From NCBI RefSeq assembly GCF_964188315.1, contig NC_135671.1:30256001-30320000 (forward strand): DNA of 64,000 nt, in the 5' to 3' direction. The translations under genes and the position numbers were made by a program. Numbering within the stretch: the first letter of the stretch is position 1; the number at the start of each line of letters is the position of its first letter. Positions 21,927 to 59,052 of the stretch are shown here, piece by piece. This DNA is from Podarcis muralis (taxonomy: Eukaryota). Below the pieces are notes generated by a model. It was not told the DNA's origin, searched no databases, and saw nothing but the letters and a program-made list of their open reading frames with translations.

Positions 21927-22432
21927 CCCAATTAATCCAGTAACTTCTTTCAATACTGCCTGCCATTCCTATTCTCCCCAGATAACAGCTTGCTTGCTCT
22001 GCTCAGACTCACTGCGGAAAAGATGTTGAAAAATGGACACCATTCAGATTATTCCCTCCCAACCACACCATACAGTAGAATCGCACCCCTTCCACACTAC
22101 TGGATCATGCTGGATCTTGCTTCAGATATTGTATATTTTCTGAGAGAAGGAAAATCAGCATGGCAGCTACTTTATTCTGGAATGCCAGCTGAAGGACAAC
22201 AACCTCCTGTGGCATACAGGAAAATCGGGGTGAAGGGGTCCGCTCAGACATGATAGCACTGCAAATTGCATATCAGATTACACATCTAAGTAAGTAATGG
22301 GCAAATAAAATCATATAGCCTTTCTTTTGGCATGTTTCTGAAAGTAATTAAAGCGTAAGGTTTAAATTATATAAATATGAATGCTAAGATAAATGCATAT
22401 CGAAAAATTGCAATGCTCCATTTTGTGGACAA

Positions 22433-23232
22433 AGACTCTCCTCCTGAAGAGAGGGGAATGGTTGTGGGCGGGAGCCCAAGCCCCGCCTCTAGCAGGGGGC
22501 GTTAGCCCCCTGCCTTCCACTTACCTGGCTGGCGCCCACGCCCATCGGCAGGCACCCAACCAGGTGCCTCTGAGGGGGCGTGTATAGCAGCCTTAATACG
22601 ACGGCGCCAGCCCCTCCTCAGCCTCACTCTTCGTCGTCCCGTCGTGATTCACCCACCCTCCACTCCCTTTGAGCTCAGGGCTTAGTTTCCCTTTGGCCTT
22701 GCTATGGTTGGTCGCCCTCGTTGTCCGGGGGGCCTGGTAGGAATTTTTCCATTTGGCATTAGGCTTTTTGGTTTTTTCGCCTACCTCGTAGCAATCGTCA
22801 CAACTTTCGTGGTATTGGTGGGTAGGTTAGGCATTGGAATAATGTGTAGTGGTGTCGAAGGGCTAGGTGTGGCCATCGCCTATGCCTTCAATTTTGGGGT
22901 ATTCCGTTAAAGGAATCTGGCGGTCGTGTATTCTGTCCGATGCCTGCTTGGCGGGAGGCCATGGCACGACCCTCGGTGACATCAGGGGAAAGCCTATAGT
23001 TGGATTAGCATCAACAGGCTCCACCTACTGGTGAATAAACCCCCCTTGTTTCAGACTCACCCATCTCTGAGGGGGTGGAGTCAGCTGACGTAATCCAATG
23101 CCTAAGCCAATACCTTTTCACTTGCTGTAATCAATAAAGTTGTGGCCTTTTCTTGCCCATTAACCTTATATCACATGTCCTTGTGTATTCAATCCACTTT
23201 GGGGGGGGGGGGATTGGGTCCTCGAACCACAA
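22433..23232 (+). mobile_element. Non-autonomous DIRS-order (YR) retroelement derivative
   Basis: Absent at the paralogous site (~45596 ttttgtatacaatatattg); shares aggcattgg, ccaatgcctaagc and aataaagttgtggcc with the YR element at 27697. Confidence 0.75.
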
Positions 23233-27029: not shown

Positions 27030-27699
27030 TAAGGATTAAGGCTTTCTGGGAGATGATATATAATGAAATGAAAAAGGTATTTAAATATACCTTTTTGAAG
27101 AAACCAGAGGCCTTTCTCCTGGGCATCGTAGGCCAATTGGTGTCAAAAAAGGATAGAACTTTCTTTATGTATGCCACGACAGCAGCAAGAATACTTATTG
27201 CAAAGTATTGGAAGACACAAGATCTACCCACCCTGGAAGAATGGCAGATGAAGGTGATGGACTATATGGAACTGGCAGAAATGACCGGCAGAATCCGAGA
27301 CCAGGGAGAAGAGTCGGTGGAAGAAGATTGGAAGAAATTTAAAGACTATCTACAGAAATATTGTAAAATTAATGAATGTTAGAATGATGTTGGATAAAAA
27401 GTTAAGTGGTTTTTAGCTATAACGCTATAAGGAATATGAAAAAATGGAGTATTAACAGGTAAAAATTTAATATTATAATATTTTAAGATTAAAGACTAGG
27501 ATAAACAAAGAGGGAAAGGATTTGCTGAACTAATAAATTGAATTGGAATACAAAAAGGGAGGTGTGAGGAGGTCTGGGAAACAAGCAAATGAAAAATAAG
27601 TGATGGAAAGATGGAATTGTTTTTTAACTATTTTTATTTTGTATTTTTCGTTTTTCATTCTGTAAAATCTTAATAAATATCTTTTAAAAAATAAATAAA
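27030..27699 (+). mobile_element. L1-clade LINE 3' fragment
   Basis: ORF2 C-terminus (PEAFLLGIVG...YATTAARILIAKYWK...DWKKFKDYL), 3' UTR and A-rich tail; no TSD. Confidence 0.85.
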
Positions 27700-28038
27700 A
27701 CTGATCAACAGGGAAAGGAAGCGGTGATTCGGCTCCCGGCAACTGGGGAAGGGGGCCCTTGCCCGGTCAAGGATCTCCAGAAGTACCTGGCCTTACGACC
27801 ACCAGGTGAGGGCCCTTTGTTTATTCATGAGAATGGGCATCCGTTGGCCCGTCACCAGTTCACCAAGGTGTTGCGCAAGGTTATTGCTGCCTGCGGCCTT
27901 GCGGCTTCTGAGTTTGCTCCTCATTCCTTTCGGATTGGGGCTGCAACGACTGCTACTCACTTGGGTTTATCGGTGGAGAGGATTAAGGACCTGGGCCGGT
28001 GGAGGTCTGATGCGTACAGAGGTTATGTATGGAAATGA
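27697..28038 (+). CDS. Tyrosine recombinase C-terminal fragment (5'-truncated)
   Basis: KTDQQGK, CPV, HSFRIGAAT (HxxR), GRW and AYRGY motifs. Confidence 0.88.
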   Translation, partial: KTDQQGKEAVIRLPATGEGGPCPVKDLQKYLALRPPGEGPLFIHENGHPLARHQFTKVLRKVIAACGLAASEFAPHSFRIGAATTATHLGLSVERIKDLGRWRSDAYRGYVWK

Positions 28039-28049
28039 TGTGATTTCAT

Positions 28050-28651
28050 GTGCTTACGTTTCTTGTTTTTACCCTAGGTCCAGCAGCTATACGCATCTGG
28101 ATTGTGGGGCACAGTATTGTACACTGGGCTGCTAGCAGAGCTCAACAGTCCGGAGTGGGTGATGGCCTTGGCCTTCCGCAGCACGTGCGGGTGTCCTGGA
28201 TCTCCAGAAGGGGGATGCTGTGGAAGGAGCTTCTACCGCTTATGCAGAGGCGTGTTCTCATGGAAGGCCCTCCTACGGCGATTGTGGTTCAGCTCGGGGG
28301 AAATGATATGGTTTCCTCTTCCTGTTATGTCCTGTGTGCTGTTATGTTGGAAGATTTGAGGGAATTCGCGGCCATGGTGCTGGCAACTAAAATAATTTGG
28401 TCACAGTTGTTCAACGCCACAATTGGCGGGGTAGTCCCTGTTCGGCGGCCACTGAACGGGTTAGAAAGCAGATTAATTCCGCGGTGAGCAAGTTGGTGGT
28501 CGATTTGGGTGGGTTTGTGATTCCACACCCTCTAATTACGTTCAAAGCCGCTGAATTCTTTATGATGGATGGGGTTCATCTGTCATCAGTTGGGAATGAT
28601 GTTTGGTTAAATTCGGTGGTGGATAAGTTGAGGGTGTGTTTGAGTCTGTGA
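28050..28651 (+). pseudogene. SGNH hydrolase ORF, frameshifted at ~28410
   Basis: WIVGHSIV (block I), QLGGND (block III), DGVHL (block V); two overlapping ORFs join at IIWSQL / QRHNWRG. Confidence 0.82.
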
Positions 28652-30505
28652 GTGGTTGGCGGCGAGCGTAAGGGCTCGAGTGGCGGTCAGGCATTGGTTT
28701 AAATTGGTTGGTGGAGGGGTATGGATTGGCTGTGCCTGCCCCTCCAATGCTTTTGCTGCACGGGAATTCCGTTAAAGGAATTCAGGGGCTTACCATCCTT
28801 TCGTCCAAACCCCTGGAATCGGGTTTGGGCCATGTAAGCCCCTAGGAGCATGCGGGGAGAAGCTGAGGGTCTGTGTCGCAGCTCCAGTTATCCCTGAACT
28901 TGTTCCTCCACACTGGCTTTCGCTGGAATCCGGGAGCCAGTGCTGTCCCCAAGGTGGGGGGGGGGGGGACAGATAGTCATAACCAATGCCTAAGCAACCA
29001 CTCACGATTTGTATGCTAATAAAGTTGTGGCCAAAAATATGCCAAAAACCTTAAACAAAAATTATGTGTGATGTGTGAGTTATTGGGGTAAGGGTGTTTT
29101 GGGGGACCTCAGCACGCAAATGGCTCTGGGGTAAGCCACACCCATTGTCAAAAAGGCAGGGAAAGTTCCATCTCACAAAACCTAACATCTCACAAGGGTA
29201 CTGAAGACATCAGGGTTCAAGGAGATGAACATAAACTGAATATTTTCACAGATTATACATTACTGATGCTCCACAATCCAAGCTAAGCCCCTTTTCCTTT
29301 GCAGAGGATACTAAATGATTTCATGGCAGTATCTGCATTCTCTATGGAGAAGTTCTCCGTATGTTTAGTTGATATTATATGGTATTATATAGTTTTATTG
29401 AGCATGGAATGATGTAAACAACTTTATAAATCCCACTAGATATCATCTCCATGGTGTTTCAAAACGTAAAATAAATCAACCATCTTATTATCAATGGGAG
29501 TTGTTAGAATCTACAAGTAATAATTAACAATGCATGTAATTTTATTGGGTGTATTTCCCCCCCCCCCTAAAACTGTTGACTTCATCTCTATATCGATACA
29601 TTTTATTGTGTCTACTTGATTTTCAATTTTTATTTTATCATGATGAATATTACATATTGTTTCGGTGTAAAGTACAGTAAGGTCTTCCTGATTAAGTGGT
29701 GTGAATATTGTTTAATAAATAAAAATAGCGTACAGGACAAATGGCTCTGGGGTAAGCCACACCCATTGTCAAAAAGGCAGGGAAAGTTCCATCTCACAAA
29801 ACCTAACATCTCACAAGGGTACTGAAGACATCCGGGTTCAAGGAGATGAGCATAAACTGAATATTTTCACAGATTATATATTACTGATGCTCCACAATCC
29901 AAGCTAAGCCCCTTTTCCTTTGCAGAGGATACTAAATGATTTCATGGCAGTATCTGCATTCCCAATGACTTCTGGACCCAGGTGTGCAATCTAATTCCTA
30001 TTATTGTGGGTCAGCCCTTGGCAATGGATCCAGATTTGGCATTACTTTCTCTAGAAAGCAATACAAGCCAACCATTGACCGCTATCCTCTTGTATTTATG
30101 TTCTAAGCAGCAGCTAAAATCTCTATTGCTAGTCACTGGAAATCCAGATTCCCATCCCGGGATTGTTGGTTTGGAAGGTTATGGGACATTGCTCTCTCTG
30201 AACATCTAACATGCCAGAGAGGGCTTAGCAGCAGGGAGATTAAAAACAGTCTGTTTCTATTCCATTTGGTAGCTCTGTCTATCCTTTGGCAATGCTGAGT
30301 CAAACAAGCATCAACCATCCCATAGCCCAAATAAACATATGGAGAAGTTCTCCGTATGTTTAGTTGATATTATATGGTATTATATAGTTGATATTATATG
30401 GTAAACACCTGACTTAGGCATTTTCGTTTTTAGCAGCATTGCACGAATGGTTCTTTTTTTCATTGTTGTTGTTGAAATCATAGAATCTTAGAGTTGGAAG
30501 GGACG

Positions 30506-33417: not shown

Positions 33418-36086
33418 TGATGCAGCATCTGAAAATAAACTTTAAAGATGTTACCGATTGCAACAATGCCCGTCCGCTGATGCTTTATACAAAAATACTG
33501 GGGGAGAGGCTTGTTCATAAAATGATTATTTATTTTTTGTTCTTTATTAGATTTATGTACCGCCCTTCAGCTGACTATCACAGGCCACTTTACAACATAA
33601 AAACACAAAATATATAACAGGACTGAAAAAATGCAATAATAACAAATTAAAGAACAAGCCATTTGATGTGCCTTAAACATCACTCCATACAGCTGACTGA
33701 GAACTGCCTGCTTCCACTTGCCCAATGGTAGAGCCGGCCTCAGTAGACAGAGCATAGCACAACAATTGTGCAACCAGCAAAATAGTTGTGTCACCCCATA
33801 GACATATTATTACATTCACTTGACCAACAAGTCTACACTGCAGAGTTGAATGTCTGATATCTCCCTTTCGAGGAATCCTGGGAATGCCTGCTCCCAAGTT
33901 AGTGAGGCATTAGAGCCAGTTTACAAAACTGCATTTTCCATAGAACTAAAATTTTAGCAATCAGACAACATTTTGGCATAGTTCATCACCATAGATTAAA
34001 ATTCTGTATTCTTTTAATTGATGGAATTCCACTGTGAATGAATGTCTGGCTACAGCCCACAAGCTGATGAAGGAGCACAGAGGCAAGTGAGCTGAAGAGT
34101 TTGAGGCTTCACAATATTCCTGTCAATTGCAAAATTAACAGCATCACAAGACATAACTCTGAACACCACTAGAAAACTGAGGAGCAAGCCTATCTTAACC
34201 TGCCTTTTAAAGAGTCATACATGTCTACTCCAAATTGTAGCACCTCTCCAGGGTCTCAGGTTGCAGTCTTCACTATTCCTGCTAAGCTACCTCATACTCT
34301 TTTGGAAAAATATTGGATCTGGAGCCTTCTGTATGAAAAACAGTAACTCTGCTATTGAGTATGAATCTTGTGGCCAAGATAAAAAAGAGTCAGGTGCTTT
34401 GAAATTGTTCTTATATCCCTTCAAAGTGGCAAAGACAAGAGCATCGGAAGGGCTGAATGAATGAATTCAAATCAAAGCTGCAGAACCTCAAACCACAATA
34501 GACTTACAAGGAAGCACGATGGATGGTGAGCTCTTCCAAATGACACCAATTTGCCACAATATCCTTTTCATGATGTTTTTATTGAGCATGGAATGATGTA
34601 AACAAGTTTATAAATCCCATCAGATATTATCTCTACGGTGTTTCAAAACATAAAATCAATCAACCTTCTTATTATCAATGGGAGTTGTTAGAATCTACAA
34701 GTAATAATTAACAATACATATAATTTTATTGGGTGTATTTTTTTTCTAAAGCTGTTGACTTCATCTCTATATCGATACATTTTGTTACATCTACTTGTTT
34801 TCCATTTTTTATTTTCTCATGATGAACATTACAGATTGTTTCTGTGTAAAGCGCAGTTAGGTCTTTATGATTAAGTGGTGTGTGAATATTGTTTAATAAA
34901 TAAAAATAGCGTACAGGACAAATGGCTCTGGGGTAAGCCACACCCATCGTCATATAGGCAGGGAAATTTCATTCTACAAGTAAAATGCTAGCACAACACC
35001 TAACATCTCACAAGGCACTGAAGACATCAGGGTTCAAGGAGATGACACTGAACATTTTCACAGATTATATCTTACTGATGCTCCATAATCCAAGCTAAGC
35101 CCCTTTTCCTTTGCAGAGGATACTAAATGATTTCATGGCAGTATTTGCATTCTCAATGACTTCTGGACCCAGGTGTTCAATCTAATTTCTATTACCGTGC
35201 GTCAAACCTCAGCAATGGATCCAGATTTGGCATTGCTTTCTCTAGAAAGTAATACAACCCAACCATTGACCACTATCCTCTTGTACAGTGGTACCTCAGG
35301 TTACATACACTTCAGGTTACAGAGTCCGCTAACCCAGAAATAGTGTATCAGGTTAAGAACTTTGCTTCAGGATGAAAACAGAAATTGTGCTCCGGCGGCG
35401 CACGATTAACCTGAGGTACCACTGTATTTATGTTCTAAGCAGCACCTAAAATCTCCATTGCTAGTCACTGGTCACTGTCTTGGGAATCTACGTTTTGAGC
35501 AGCATTGTATGAATGGTTCTTTTTTCCCACTGTTGTTGTTGGAACCATAGAATCTTAGAGTTGAAAAGGACCCAAGGGCCACCATCGGCTGTGGTGAGGA
35601 CAGCAAGGCCTGCTCCCTTACAAAGCCTTTACCAACTGGCCTAGGGGGCAAGGCCCAGGCCCTCACACTTCCAGCTATAAAGAGACTCCTCTGGCAGAAA
35701 CGGCCTTCTTGGCTGTTGAAGCCAGTATTGGTCTCATCAGCTCAATCCACCGCAGCCTGTCTTCGCATAAGGGGAAGTCCTCCTTGACACACAAAGACAC
35801 ACACTCACACCAATTAATCCAGTAACTTCTTTCAATACTGCCTCCCATACCCATTCTCTCCAGGTAACAGCTTGCTTGCTCTGCTCAGACTGAAGTGAGG
35901 AAAAGGTGCTGAAAAATGGACACCATTCAGACCATTCCCTCCCAACCACACCATACAGTAGAGTTGCAGCCAACCCCTTCCACAGTACTGAATCAGGTTG
36001 GACCTTTCTTCAGATATTTCATACTTTTGAGAGAAGGAAAATCAGCCTGGCAGCTACATTGTTCTGGAATACTAAGTGAAGGACAA

Positions 36087-36723
36087 AGCCACTTCCGTCC
36101 TCAGGAGGAGGTGGTGTTGTTGTTGTGGTGGTGGTGGTGGTGGTGCGCTTCACGCCCCCAACACACGCGCGGAAGCTGGCTTCCAGCCCCGCGCAATCAT
36201 TTGAATCCTCGGGCCGCGTCATCCCCTGGCCAGCCAATCGGCTGGCTCAGGGGGTGTGGCTTGCCTCATTTAAGGCAAGCAGGGCCCGGGATCTCCCTCT
36301 CGTCACAACTTCTTTGGTTTTGGTGGTTAGGCATTGGTAGGGGTATTGTTATGTAGATGTGTTGGGGGGGAGGAGCGCCATCACCTCCCCCAAAATATCG
36401 AAGGGTAGTCCGGTGAAGGATTCCGTGGGGCGTGGCCTTGTCCGAAGCCTATGGAGGTCAGGGCCTAAAGCGCCCCCCCCCGAGCGGTGACCCCGGGGGA
36501 GTCCCTTGTTGATGTGCATCAGCAGGGCTCCCCCTGCTGGTGCTAACCCTTCCCGGTCTTCAAGCAAACAGGCTGAAGCCGGATAGTCGGCTAGGACCGA
36601 TGCCTAAGCCAATACTGCTCTTTACCTGTAACCAATAAAGTTGTGGCCTATTTTAGCCCATTAACCTAAATATTTGTGCCACGTGTCATTATTCTTACTG
36701 GTGGGAGGCGGGAGCTCGCCACG
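36087..36723 (+). mobile_element. Second non-autonomous DIRS-order derivative (diverged family)
   Basis: Empty site in paralog (~22193 ggacaacaacctc); same diagnostic motifs; ends cacgca like 29117. Confidence 0.75.
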
Positions 36724-36890
36724 CAACCTCATGTGGTCCAGTGCAAGAAAATCATGGGGTGAGGGGACCACTCAGACATGATAGCACTGCAAATTACTTA
36801 TCCAATTGCATATCTAATTATGTAATGGACATATAATATGATATAGCCTTTCTTTGGGCATGGTTTTGAAAGTAATTAAAGTGTCAGGTT

Positions 36891-40396: not shown

Positions 40397-42213
40397 TAAA
40401 CAGGTTTAAGGATTTAGATTTGGTGGACAGAGTGCCTGAAGAGCTATGGATGGAGGCTCGTAACATTGTACAGGAGGCAGCAACGAAAAGCATCCCAATG
40501 AAAAGGAAATGCAAGAAAGCAAAGTGGCTGTCCAACGAGGCCTTACAAATAGCGGAGGAGAGAAGGCAAGCAAAATGCGAGGGAGATAGTGAAAGATACA
40601 GGAAATTGAATGCAGATTTCCAAAAAATAGCAAGGAGAGACAAGAAGGCCTTCTTAAACGAGCAATGCAAAGAAATAGAGGAAAACAACAGAATGGGAAG
40701 AACTAGAAATCTGTTCAAGAAAATTGGAGATATGAAAGGAACATTTCGTACAAAGATTACCATAATAAAGGACAAAAGTGGAAAGGACCTAACAGAAGCA
40801 GAAGACATCAGGAAGAGGTGGCAAATACACGGAGGAATTACACCAGAAAGATATGGATGTCTCGTACACCCCAGGTAGTGTGGTTGCTGACCTTGAGTCA
40901 GACATCCTGGAGAGTGAAGTCAAATGGGCCTTAGAAAGCACTGCAAATAACAAGGCCAGTGGAAGTGATGGTATTCCAGCTGAACTATTTAAAATTTTAA
41001 AAGATGATGCTGTTAAGGTGCTACACTCAATATGCCAGCAAGTTTGGAAAACTCAGCAGTGGCCAGAAGATTGGAGAAGATCAGTCTACATCCCAATCCC
41101 AAAGAAGGGCAGTGCCAAAGAATGCTCCAACTACCGAACAATTGCACTCATTTCACACGCTAGCAAGGTTATGCTTAAAATTCTACAAGGAAGACTCAAG
41201 CAGTATGTGGACCGAGAACTTCCAGAAGTGCAAGGTGGATTTAGAAGAGGGAGAGGAACCAAAGACCAAATTGCAATCATGCACTGGATTATGGAGAAAG
41301 CTAGAGAGTTCCAGAAAGACATCTACTTCTGTTTCATTGACTATGCAAAAGCCTTTGACTGTGTCGACCACAGCAAACTATGGCAAGTTCTTAAAGAAAT
41401 GGGAGTGCCTGATCACCTCATCTGTCTCCTGAGAAATCTCTATGTGGGACAAGAAGCTACAGTTAGAACTGGATATGGAACAACTGGTTGGTTCAAAATT
41501 GGGAAAGGAGTAAGACAAGGCTGTATATTGTCTCCCTGCTTATTTAACTTATATGCTGAATTCATCATGCAAAAGGCTGGGCTGGATGAATCCCTAGCCG
41601 GAATTAAGATTGCGGGAAGAAATATCAACAACCTCAGATATGCAGATGACACAACCTTGGTGGCAGAAAGTGAGGAGGAATTAAAGAACCTTTTAATGAG
41701 GGTGAAAGAGGAGAGCGCAAAATATGGTCTGAAGCTCAACATCAAAAAAACGAAGATCATGGCCACTGGTCCCATCACCTCCTGGCAAATAGAAGGAGAA
41801 GAAATGGAGGCAGTGAGAGATTTTACTTTCTTGGGCTCCATAATCACTGCAGATGGTGACAGCAGCCACGAAATTAAAAGACGCCTGCTTCTTGGGAGAA
41901 AAGCAATGACAAACCTAGACAGCATCTTAAATAGCAGAGACATCACCTTGCCAACAAAAGTCTGTATTGCAAAAGCTATGGTTTTCCCAGTAGTGATGTA
42001 TGGAAGTGAGAGCTGGACCATAAAGAAGGGTGATCGCCGAAGAATTGATACTTTTGAATTATGGTGCTGGAGGAATTATGGTGTTCTCGAAGCTACCAGG
42101 ATGAGTTTGACTAAACTGTGGGAGGCAGTGGAAGACAGGAGTGCCTGGCGTGCTCTGGTCCATGGGATCACGAAGAGTCGGACACGACTAAACGACTAAA
42201 CAACAACAACAAC
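40397..42213 (+). mobile_element. 5'-truncated BovB/RTE LINE
   Basis: RT ORF (GSDGIPAEL, IDYAKAFD, GVRQGCILSP, YADD); (CAA)n tail; 10-bp TSD aaacatcact; frameshift at ~40830; internal 3' deletion. Confidence 0.93.
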
Positions 42214-57560: not shown

Positions 57561-59052
57561 TGTAGCCTTATTAGACTTTACCGATTGGTTGGGTGAGCGT
57601 TGCTCCCGCAGAGGGAGGAAAGAGTCAAAAGACATTGAGGTTGGTTCGGAGGAAGAGTTCTTTATTTCTGCTCTCCGGAGCAGCAGAAAGGCACTTGCAT
57701 GGTCAGTTCACAGCAAGAGCACTTAAGGAACGGTTACACACAGCTTATATACCCTTTCTGGTCCCCTTGACCCCTCCCCAGGAATCCAGCCACGTCAGCT
57801 TATACACGTAAGTTGACATCCATGACCATAAACAGTTGTTCCTGTTCCTGTACTCTTGACCATAAAAGGATGTTCCTGTTCCTGTATTCCTTATCTTGGG
57901 GTAAGAAGGTCACTAACTCTAAGAGCACTCCTGGCGCCATCCCCGAGCGCGGGGGTGTCTTGCAAGGTCTGTGCGTCAGTGTGTCAGGATATTTACAACC
58001 CACAAGATAAGCCCCAGCTCTGCCCGTCCCGTCTCCACTTCGGAACTGACAAGGCCATCCATTAAGCGTCAGGTACTGATAAAGGAGAAGGCTTGCCTTA
58101 AGAGAGAATATTATGAAAATGATTTATAGGTGGTACATGACCCCAGTCAAGCTTGCAAAAATCTATCATTTGCCCAATAATAAATGCTGGAAATGTAATG
58201 AGACTGAAGGTACCTTTTATCACCTTTGGTGGACATGCCCGAGGATTAAGGCTTTCTGGGAAATGATTTATAATGAAATTAAGAAGGTCCTTAAATGTAC
58301 CTTTCATAAGAAACCAGAGGCCTTTCTCCTGGGCATGGTTGGCCAATTGGTGTCAAGGAAGGATAGGATGTTTTTTATGTATGCTACCACAGCAGCAAGG
58401 ATTCTCTTAGCAAAGTATTGGAAGACACAAGAACTACCCACGCTGGAAGAATGGCAGATGAAGGTGATTGACTACATGGGACTGGCTGAGATGACTGGCA
58501 GAATCCGTGACCAAGGAAAAGAGACGGTGGAAGAAGACTGGAAGAAGTACAAAGATTATCTTAAGAATTGTTATAAAATTAATGAGTGTTAAAATGTCAA
58601 GGGTATTGGAAAAATAGAATTACAGCTGTAAATGATTGGGTAAGAGAGATAAGATCAAAGAAAACGAACAAATGTGTTAATGAAGTGAGGGGTTGCTGAG
58701 AAAATTTTAAATAAGGGATGCAGAAAAGGGAGGCATGGGGAAGTCGGCGAAACAAGCTTAAGAAAAGGAGGTTATGAAATTATACGTGTTTATATGTTTT
58801 TTGTTTGTTGGTGTATTGTGAATTGTATTGTGTTTATTTTATGTTGGAAAATCAATAAAAATTTTATAAAAAAAAAAAAGATAAAGGAGAGGGCTTTGTT
58901 TATACAGCTGGGTTCCTGTTATACATGAGCTCAACTCCTCAAGTTAATGGATTTTAGCTAATGGACCCTTGGGGAAGGAAAAATGGGGATTTTGGGGCAT
59001 GTTGCAGACTGACTGCACAGTCAGGTTTAGGTTTGGGAAACCCATTCCTTCA
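57561..59052 (-). mobile_element. ERV-like solo LTR interrupted by an L1
   Basis: tgtagccttat...ccttca; flanks atca / atcc; empty site gaagacatcagggttcaagg in paralogs. Confidence 0.8.
58095..58879 (+). mobile_element. L1-clade LINE 3' fragment nested in the LTR
   Basis: 159-aa ORF2 C-terminus (CWKC...HLWWTC...YATTAARILLAKYWK); poly(A); 17-bp TSD gataaaggaga(a/g)ggctt. Confidence 0.92.

Follow-up and report, generated by a model that had tools for sequence, protein, structure and literature searches.

A probable conserved RNA fold at the 3′ end of Ngaro retrotransposons of Podarcis muralis and its proposed role in 3′-end choice and stability

Ngaro retrotransposons with an SGNH hydrolase are known from amphibians (PMC9210276, PMC4157794). 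DIRS-53_XT of Xenopus, an amphibian-type element that belongs to Ngaro, a superfamily in the order DIRS, encodes gag, RT, tyrosine recombinase (YR) and SGNH hydrolase in this order and is organized as A1-ORFs-B1-A2-B2, with split direct repeats that form identical pairs (PMC9210276). That account of the element makes no mention of hairpin, secondary structure or polyA. Remnants without ORFs and of the form A-(unique piece)-B have been documented in Cafeteria, where they are solo AB repeats of Ngaro (PMC8547959), and as SIRE of VIPER (PMC6681497), and no RNA fold is described in the excerpts of either account. Priming in YR retrotransposons and the choice between two identical poly(A) signals are open questions, the primer of DIRS-1 being stated as unknown (PMC7192593).

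Two kinds of RNA structure known from other systems are relevant to the 3′ end of such elements. The ENEs of KSHV PAN RNA, of plant and fungal transposable elements and of Arabidopsis Evade are stem-loops in which a U-rich internal loop lies beside G-C pairs, and those of retroelements are located in the 3′ region, upstream of a poly(A) signal (PMC7583470, PMC12501189). Slime mold elements and stickleback retroviruses are named as holders in the excerpt of an ENE review. The polyA hairpin of HIV-1, which covers AAUAAA at one of two identical repeats, provides a precedent for structural masking of a poly(A) signal (PMC2645353).

The window analysed here is a stretch of 64,000 nucleotides from Podarcis muralis (NC_135671.1, 30,256,001 to 30,320,000, forward strand). 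The original prediction had pointed to a multi-hairpin 3′ module with six motifs in a fixed order, shared by three diverged tyrosine-recombinase retroelements, and all six motifs were found where it had placed them in all three copies. The features of the window referred to below are as follows.

13842–61763, minus strand: olfactory receptor cluster of nine intact, recently duplicated 322-codon ORFs.
22430–23232, plus strand: copy 1, a solo A-spacer-B form without ORFs, having empty paralogous sites and no tblastn match.
22736–22785, plus strand: internal loop of the copy 1 spacer, U-rich and ENE-like, the only match to the strict pattern in the window.
22799–22806, plus strand: spacer motif CACAACTT of copy 1, whose complement is 23137–23144, where the hexamer region ends.
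27694–28035, plus strand: tyrosine recombinase ORF, C-terminal fragment of a 5′-truncated Ngaro element (PF00589, E 5.3e-06, narrowly short of the curated cut-off).
28065–28651, plus strand: SGNH-hydrolase-like ORF, broken and in two frames, with its stop at 28649–28651 (tblastn, 57–59% identity in two pieces).
28633–28658, plus strand: 5′ strand of P0, which is the end of the hydrolase ORF and lies outside the B repeat (from sequence, folding and the family swap test).
28663–28678, plus strand: hairpin at the junction of P0 with P1, specific to the B1 context.
28681–29119, plus strand: B repeat of copy 2, in the B1 position and terminal here, ending in CACGCAA and followed by host DNA.
28689–28699, plus strand: P1 5′ arm.
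28713–28745, plus strand: P2 hairpin.
28766–28781, plus strand: P3, a hairpin whose loop is GUUAAA and the helix with the best support.
28785–28842, plus strand: P4 hairpin in two parts, the apical one at 28805–28828.
28854–28894, plus strand: P5 hairpin.
28911–28942, plus strand: P6 hairpin.
28943–28972, plus strand: P7 hairpin, confined to group II.
28981–28991, plus strand: P1 3′ arm, which varies less than any other core motif.
29018–29032, plus strand: AATAAA hexamer with GTTGTGGCC, a putative poly(A) signal, followed by a GT-rich tract near 29064–29085.
36084–36726, plus strand: copy 3, a solo A-spacer-B form in which most of the spacer, ENE-like loop included, is deleted.

The left arms lie at 22828, 28688 and 36328. 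Their right-hand counterparts are at 23095, 28983 and 36597, and in the one at 36597 a single change results in a U-G pair; the arm-to-arm spans are 267, 295 and 269 nt for copies 1, 2 and 3, respectively. By itself the arm 10-mer is not rare, as 7 matches at ≤1 mismatch were found in the window vs 11.4 expected, while AATAAAGTTGTGGCC is exact at 23133, 29018 and 36634 and has 3 matches at ≤2 mismatches in the window vs 0.27 expected. The three hairpins described for the copy near 28.8 kb are present at 28713–28745, 28766–28781 and 28805–28828. The proposition that structure was kept while sequence diverged found support as far as the fold is concerned; P1 and the hexamer are conserved in sequence too, and the cores are 61–70% identical, which makes the three copies plain homologues. 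Coding remnants of a tyrosine-recombinase retroelement accompany copy 2 alone, copies 1 and 3 being solo repeats with no ORFs and a CAA core at both ends. The recombinase and hydrolase of a relative matched the window by tblastn solely at 27694–28029 and 28065–28648, and the recombinase fragment of copy 2 is 71% identical to that of a full-length relative. The B repeat of copy 2 is 92.5% identical to both B1 and B2 of another locus (L147). Folding of the cores gave z values of −3.1, −6.3 and −6.0 for copies 1 to 3 (25 dinucleotide shuffles each); for 28630–29035 the value was −5.3, none of 100 shuffles being equally stable.

The module is almost certainly the B split direct repeat of Ngaro retrotransposons. 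The combined pattern of right arm and hexamer has 3,992 exact matches in the 1.52-Gb genome and none in the control, and four of the 20 long loci fetched carry two modules about 800 bp apart. By self-comparison of such relatives, of which the window copies are partial forms, the layout A1-gag-RT-YR-hydrolase-B1-A2-spacer-B2 was established. The A repeats of L031–L034 are 99–100% and their B repeats 98–100% identical; the spacer before B2 is unique and about 170–180 nt long (172–179 among the three spacers listed). The four ORFs of L034 matched, in order, a zinc finger (E 1.9e-04), RVT_1 (7.4e-13), Phage_integrase (1.2e-05) and Lipase_GDSL_2 (4.9e-06, below the curated cut-off), and none of them matched a methyltransferase family at E ≤0.1. 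L034 thereby has a Gag-like, an RT and a YR ORF, and its repeats come downstream of the YR, whose end is retained in copy 2. An alternative assignment to DIRS1-like elements was rejected, as the terminal repeats are direct, not inverted, and the inverted matches of the spacer to the B tail span only ~8 nt.

Within single elements, B1 and B2 differ by 0–3 internal changes (7 of 7 elements), whereas the nearest other copy differs by 24–68. In all seven the identity begins 7–8 nt ahead of the left arm and spans the entire repeat, and a 27-nt duplication is common to B1 and B2 of L033. The split-repeat layout, the identical repeat pairs and the gene order are those of DIRS-53_XT; the B repeat is longer, ~410–460 nt compared with 152 bp, and the unique spacer before B2 is unlike that element (PMC9210276). 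Copies 1 and 3 resemble the solo repeats of Cafeteria Ngaro and SIRE. The element class, the B repeat and the solo forms are already known. Most ORF-adjacent B copies (27 of 35, L141–L170) end directly in host DNA, as copy 2 does. Both the ORF-B and the solo A-spacer-B forms could stem from a circle with two B-A junctions resolved by the recombinase, or from ordinary repeat recombination.

It is likely that a plus-strand RNA fold of this repeat is under selection. For its analysis, 136 modules were parsed into 65 subfamilies (85% identity) and 22 families (75%), and the families were sorted by eye into three groups (I, II and III). Modules with no readable arm were dropped (22 of 158, and 16 of 108 hexamer matches in the core comparison), and 4–6 cores that were chimeric or had deletions were taken out manually ahead of the group alignments and the covariation, strand and segment tests. 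Since the loci were found through motif patterns, the invariance of these motifs is partly built in; variable helices are misregistered because the alignments are sequence-only, and p-values are optimistic because the subfamilies are related. The group alignments share one topology, a junction closed by P1 with P2, then Pa enclosing P3-P4-P5, then P6; group II has P7 in addition, and Pa was not recovered there, P3 being extended locally instead. In groups I and II the motif TAGTC (window 28973–28978) stands ahead of the P1 3′ arm; in group III (L082, L039 and others) it comes after the P1 5′ arm, as if it had been moved around the junction.

The GUUAAA hairpin, P3, covaries across all groups. 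It provided the top pair of a blind covariation scan of 34 sequences (C-G 10, U-A 24; E <0.025), in which the three column pairs at E ≤0.025 comprised two helix pairs and a non-canonical one, and no pseudoknot emerged. P3 is also the sole helix that survived the 44-sequence alignment of all groups, with 13 and 9 double changes; its pairs are canonical in 60, 60, 62, 61 and 49 of 63 sequences and its loop bases are invariant. The other helices covary within groups only. P1 is nearly invariant except at its inner end, and its 3′ arm is fixed even where a changed 5′ arm leaves a mismatch (group III). When covariance played no part in predicting the structures, G summed over stem pairs amounted to 189, 89 and 78 in the three groups, against maxima of 42, 30 and 39 in 60 tree simulations. 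P4–P5 segments had z < −2 in 32 of 62 cases, compared with 0/62 control tails, 8/46 A repeats and 2/11 ORFs. In the largest group (I) the segment medians were weak, −1.1 to −1.3, and similar to the ORF control at −1.2. Shared substitutions kept or broke pairs in 66 and 63 cases vs 97 and 100 for private ones (p 0.82); with finer families the counts were 64/60 vs 142/196 (p 0.07). Taken together, these results suggest a real plus-strand RNA fold, firmly at P3 and P1 and moderately elsewhere.

A functional RNA and an ssDNA fold had both been envisaged in the original prediction. Pairs that are predicted for either strand and involve no G-U were taken as strand-neutral, and at these the shared variants comprised 52 G-U vs 25 A-C (p 0.003); that singletons lean the same way, 111 vs 79, counts against a role of selection in this excess. 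Consensus energies are lower on the plus strand in 12 of 12 families. Whole-core z-scores fail to separate the strands. A selected fold is supported, and an RNA fold on the plus strand is favoured over ssDNA because G-U outnumbers A-C. DIRS-1 does have a linear single-stranded cDNA intermediate (PMC7192593), and z-scores of the reverse complement are as low as those of the plus strand; nevertheless, with the G-U excess and the energies as given, and with the U-rich loop and AAUAAA readable on the plus strand only, it is very improbable that minus-strand single-stranded cDNA uses the fold for circularisation.

The sequences upstream of B1 and of B2 are different and each of them is complementary to the B tail. 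These context-specific extension stems, as well as the ENE-like loop of the spacer, had been missed in the original prediction. In the case of B1, the piece of tail that separates P1 from the hexamer has its complement in the last hydrolase codons, with family-specific swaps, over ~25–30 bp in group I and at least 11–12 bp in group II. The P0 core of copy 2 (28648–28658) is complementary to 28995–29005 and is predicted to extend towards the hexamer; in general the B1 extension of P1 is predicted to reach the AAU of AAUAAA. In the family swap test, the B1 upstream sequence paired better with its own tail than with those of other families in 14 of 17 cases (p 0.011), the mean pairing energy being −28.9 kcal/mol with the own tail, −24.2 with tails of other families and −16.2 with shuffled ones. 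Predicted pairing of AAU is ~0.7 at B1 vs ~0.3 at B2. The last hexamer bases at B2 are likewise predicted to be paired (0.57–0.67), and L034 and some other B1 copies show little predicted pairing, so that the switch between the two contexts is not clean.

In the B2 context, the spacer contributes a short P0 plus CACAACTT, whose complement is found where the hexamer region ends, and this helix is invariant. The family swap test was null here, the own tail being better in 22 of 54, and the spacer variants CACAGCTT are compensated in only 2 of 20 readable tails, with 10 tails unreadable. Another structure of the spacer, 28–41 nt before P1, is ENE-like: it has a stem of 6 bp, then a U-rich strand on each side and, above these, C-G pairs. 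A strict pattern, written after viewing the sequences, detected it in 34 of 54 B2 subfamilies and 62 of 92 copies, in 0/17 B1 and in 0/1840 shuffles; with a looser parser the counts were 31/54 B2, 1/17 B1 and 55/276 shuffles. The motif has 3,017 matches in the genome and none in the control, and 24 of 30 loci picked by it continue into B2. G-C occupies the first two lower pairs in 32/34 and 34/34, positions that are partly fixed by the search pattern, and one lower-stem pair is U-A, C-G or A-U depending on the family. Copy 3 has lost the loop, and copy 2 never had it because it is a B1.

The spacer structure, as predicted, has the U-rich internal loop on both strands and the adjacent G-C pairs by which ENEs are defined (PMC7583470), and the ENE of Evade has the same shape (PMC12501189). 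It lies ~350 nt upstream of the hexamer, the putative poly(A) signal. Unlike the known ENEs, it belongs to a vertebrate YR retrotransposon, a domain of ~300 nt would be looped out between loop and hexamer, and the triple helix is putative. A second 3×3 pyrimidine-rich internal loop was observed above the ENE-like loop in many spacers of groups I and II (22749–22771; loci L171–L200) and is absent in group III; the two loops possibly make up a double-domain ENE. In group II only, a genome-encoded CAAAAACC follows the hexamer (29042–29050), and the U-strand on the 3′ side of the ENE-like loop is complementary to it; judged from sequence, it might play the part of an A-rich tract encoded in the element.

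The layout, having a poly(A) signal in each of two identical repeats, implies that the element must pass the first one in order to copy the B-A junction, and it is from this need that we read the B domain as a 3′-end switch, with read-through at B1 and poly(A) protection at B2. We hold this model tentatively, its chances falling a little short of even. According to it, the plus-strand RNA of B would fold into a multi-hairpin domain closed by P1. In the B1 context the hydrolase ORF would pair, by its end, with the tail and so lengthen P1 as far as the first bases of AAUAAA; with the hexamer masked, cleavage there would be weaker, giving an RNA long enough to include the B-A junction. The HIV-1 polyA hairpin likewise acts at one of two identical repeats (PMC2645353); here, unlike in HIV-1, the strand that pairs is not part of the repeat but belongs to the last ORF codons, ~350 nt away, and would cover only half of the hexamer. 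In the B2 context, a distance of ~380 nt along the RNA would shrink to some tens of nucleotides through P1 and the spacer helices. With the inner domain looped out by P1, the poly(A) tail would come to lie next to the U-rich loop of ENE-like shape, which may then clamp the tail in a triple helix. The inner hairpins P2–P7, above all P3, are likely to dock the Gag or reverse transcriptase of the element, although this step is a guess. The model is weakened because the B2 hexamer is predicted to be partly paired and because the reads and retrocopies described below marked no poly(A) end. In broader terms, vertebrate Ngaro RNA would have a conserved and structured 3′ end with a probable role in 3′-end choice and stability.

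The main rival of this model is priming at the P1 base, since the B start is fixed there. The B2 RNA would be cut near the P1 3′ arm and would prime cDNA at the P1 base by self-priming or strand transfer, after which B2 would be rebuilt wholly from B1. The common start of B1/B2 identity 7–8 nt before the left arm (7/7), the copying of the whole B including the 27-nt duplication of L033, the constancy of the P1 3′ arm in the group III mismatch and the DIRS-1 primer stated as unknown (PMC7192593) are all in line with it. Whole-repeat copying is also expected from ordinary strand displacement, however, the B boundary could reflect selection on the fold, and the ENE-like loop is left unexplained; we therefore regard such priming as unlikely, if well above negligible. 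A combination of both ideas is less probable still: a new RNA class of ~450 nt, made up of ENE-like loop, long-range clamp and multi-hairpin core, would protect the tail and also prime tRNA-free reverse transcription. Reverse transcription starting at the P1 base would explain why the B repeat starts there. Alternatively, the inner domain might be a nuclear-export or packaging element as in retroviruses and MusD, with the flanking helices as insulation. Its place directly after the last ORF, such elements usually being found between last ORF and 3′ repeat (PMC4588558), its ~270–300 nt with several stem-loops and the invariant P3 loop bases would fit such a role, while the lack of an Rfam match and the two context-specific stems that reach the hexamer speak against it. 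As an account of the whole domain it seems unlikely to us; it is compatible with part of the 3′-end switch, and for the inner hairpins it is as likely as the binding of element proteins.

The original prediction had also mentioned an uncharacterised ribozyme, and size, multi-way junction and a few invariant unpaired motifs would be consistent with self-cleavage or splicing. No ribozyme family matched at E ≤5 in the window region or at E ≤1 in 12 loci, the blind scan gave no pseudoknot, and most inner helices vary freely; this suggestion thus found no support, and we consider it the least probable of all readings. A short motif before the P1 3′ arm resembles a group I intron element. It sits on the opposite side of the junction in group III, and the likeness was rejected. 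It is hardly more credible that nothing beyond P3 is selected and that shared ancestry and G/C-rich runs produced chance hairpins. The null or weak outcomes for spacer compensation, B2 swap, shared vs private substitutions, all-group alignment and group I segments would be explained in this way, but not the summed covariation well above the tree null in three groups, the z < −2 found in P4–P5 segments and never in the 62 control tails, or the upstream partners that lie outside the repeat and are still complementary to the tail.

A search of Rfam 15 returned nothing relevant, only chance miRNA matches far below gathering scores. The module had not been recognised as a described motif; the repeat itself is described as the Ngaro B repeat, and for its fold a description was not found. 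No account of an RNA fold or ENE in Ngaro repeats turned up in the literature searched, which consisted mainly of openly accessible papers. If the ENE holds true for this vertebrate YR retrotransposon, the mechanism would reach beyond the mostly plant and fungal elements described. Thousands of copies in at least 65 subfamilies are a ready set of natural variants, and these point to three RNA parts: the B1-specific hexamer stem, the B2-specific ENE-like loop and the invariant GUUAAA hairpin.

Raw RNA reads were inspected in six runs, in two sets of four, with 81–657 reads per run. The reads are mostly 90–95% alike and aligned only in part. They are biased to sense in the first read set and to antisense in the bulk runs of the second, and these opposite biases fit copies embedded in host transcripts. 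Among the rows listed, the reads, which are shallow and of mixed origin, showed neither start or end pile-ups nor a loose poly(A) end. One related copy with a truncated B tail (L022:1498–1550) accounts for ~300 reads per bulk run; they extend past it into other sequence and are for the most part antisense to the element, and this is likely a copy inside a host transcript. No polyadenylated processed retrocopies were found: the sole match with 11 A continues as an intact element, and of the loci with 8 A, 18 in number when counted once each, 16 continue, the other 2 leading into repeat DNA that is AT-rich or of another kind.

The neighbours of the module in the window deserve a brief mention. 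A fragment with an A-rich tail at 27032–27690, which has a second copy at 58242–58596, adjoins the truncated 5′ end of copy 2; it had no Pfam match and is LINE-like by inspection. On the plus strand, 40793–42199 holds a 468-codon ORF (RVT_1, E 5.3e-41), probably a LINE fragment with no relation to the B module. The nine ORFs of the cluster are arranged in tandem and are 91–98% alike in the 300-nt ends compared, and the one that was profile-scanned is an olfactory receptor. As the cluster units are duplicated, they offer empty paralogous sites for dating all three insertions.
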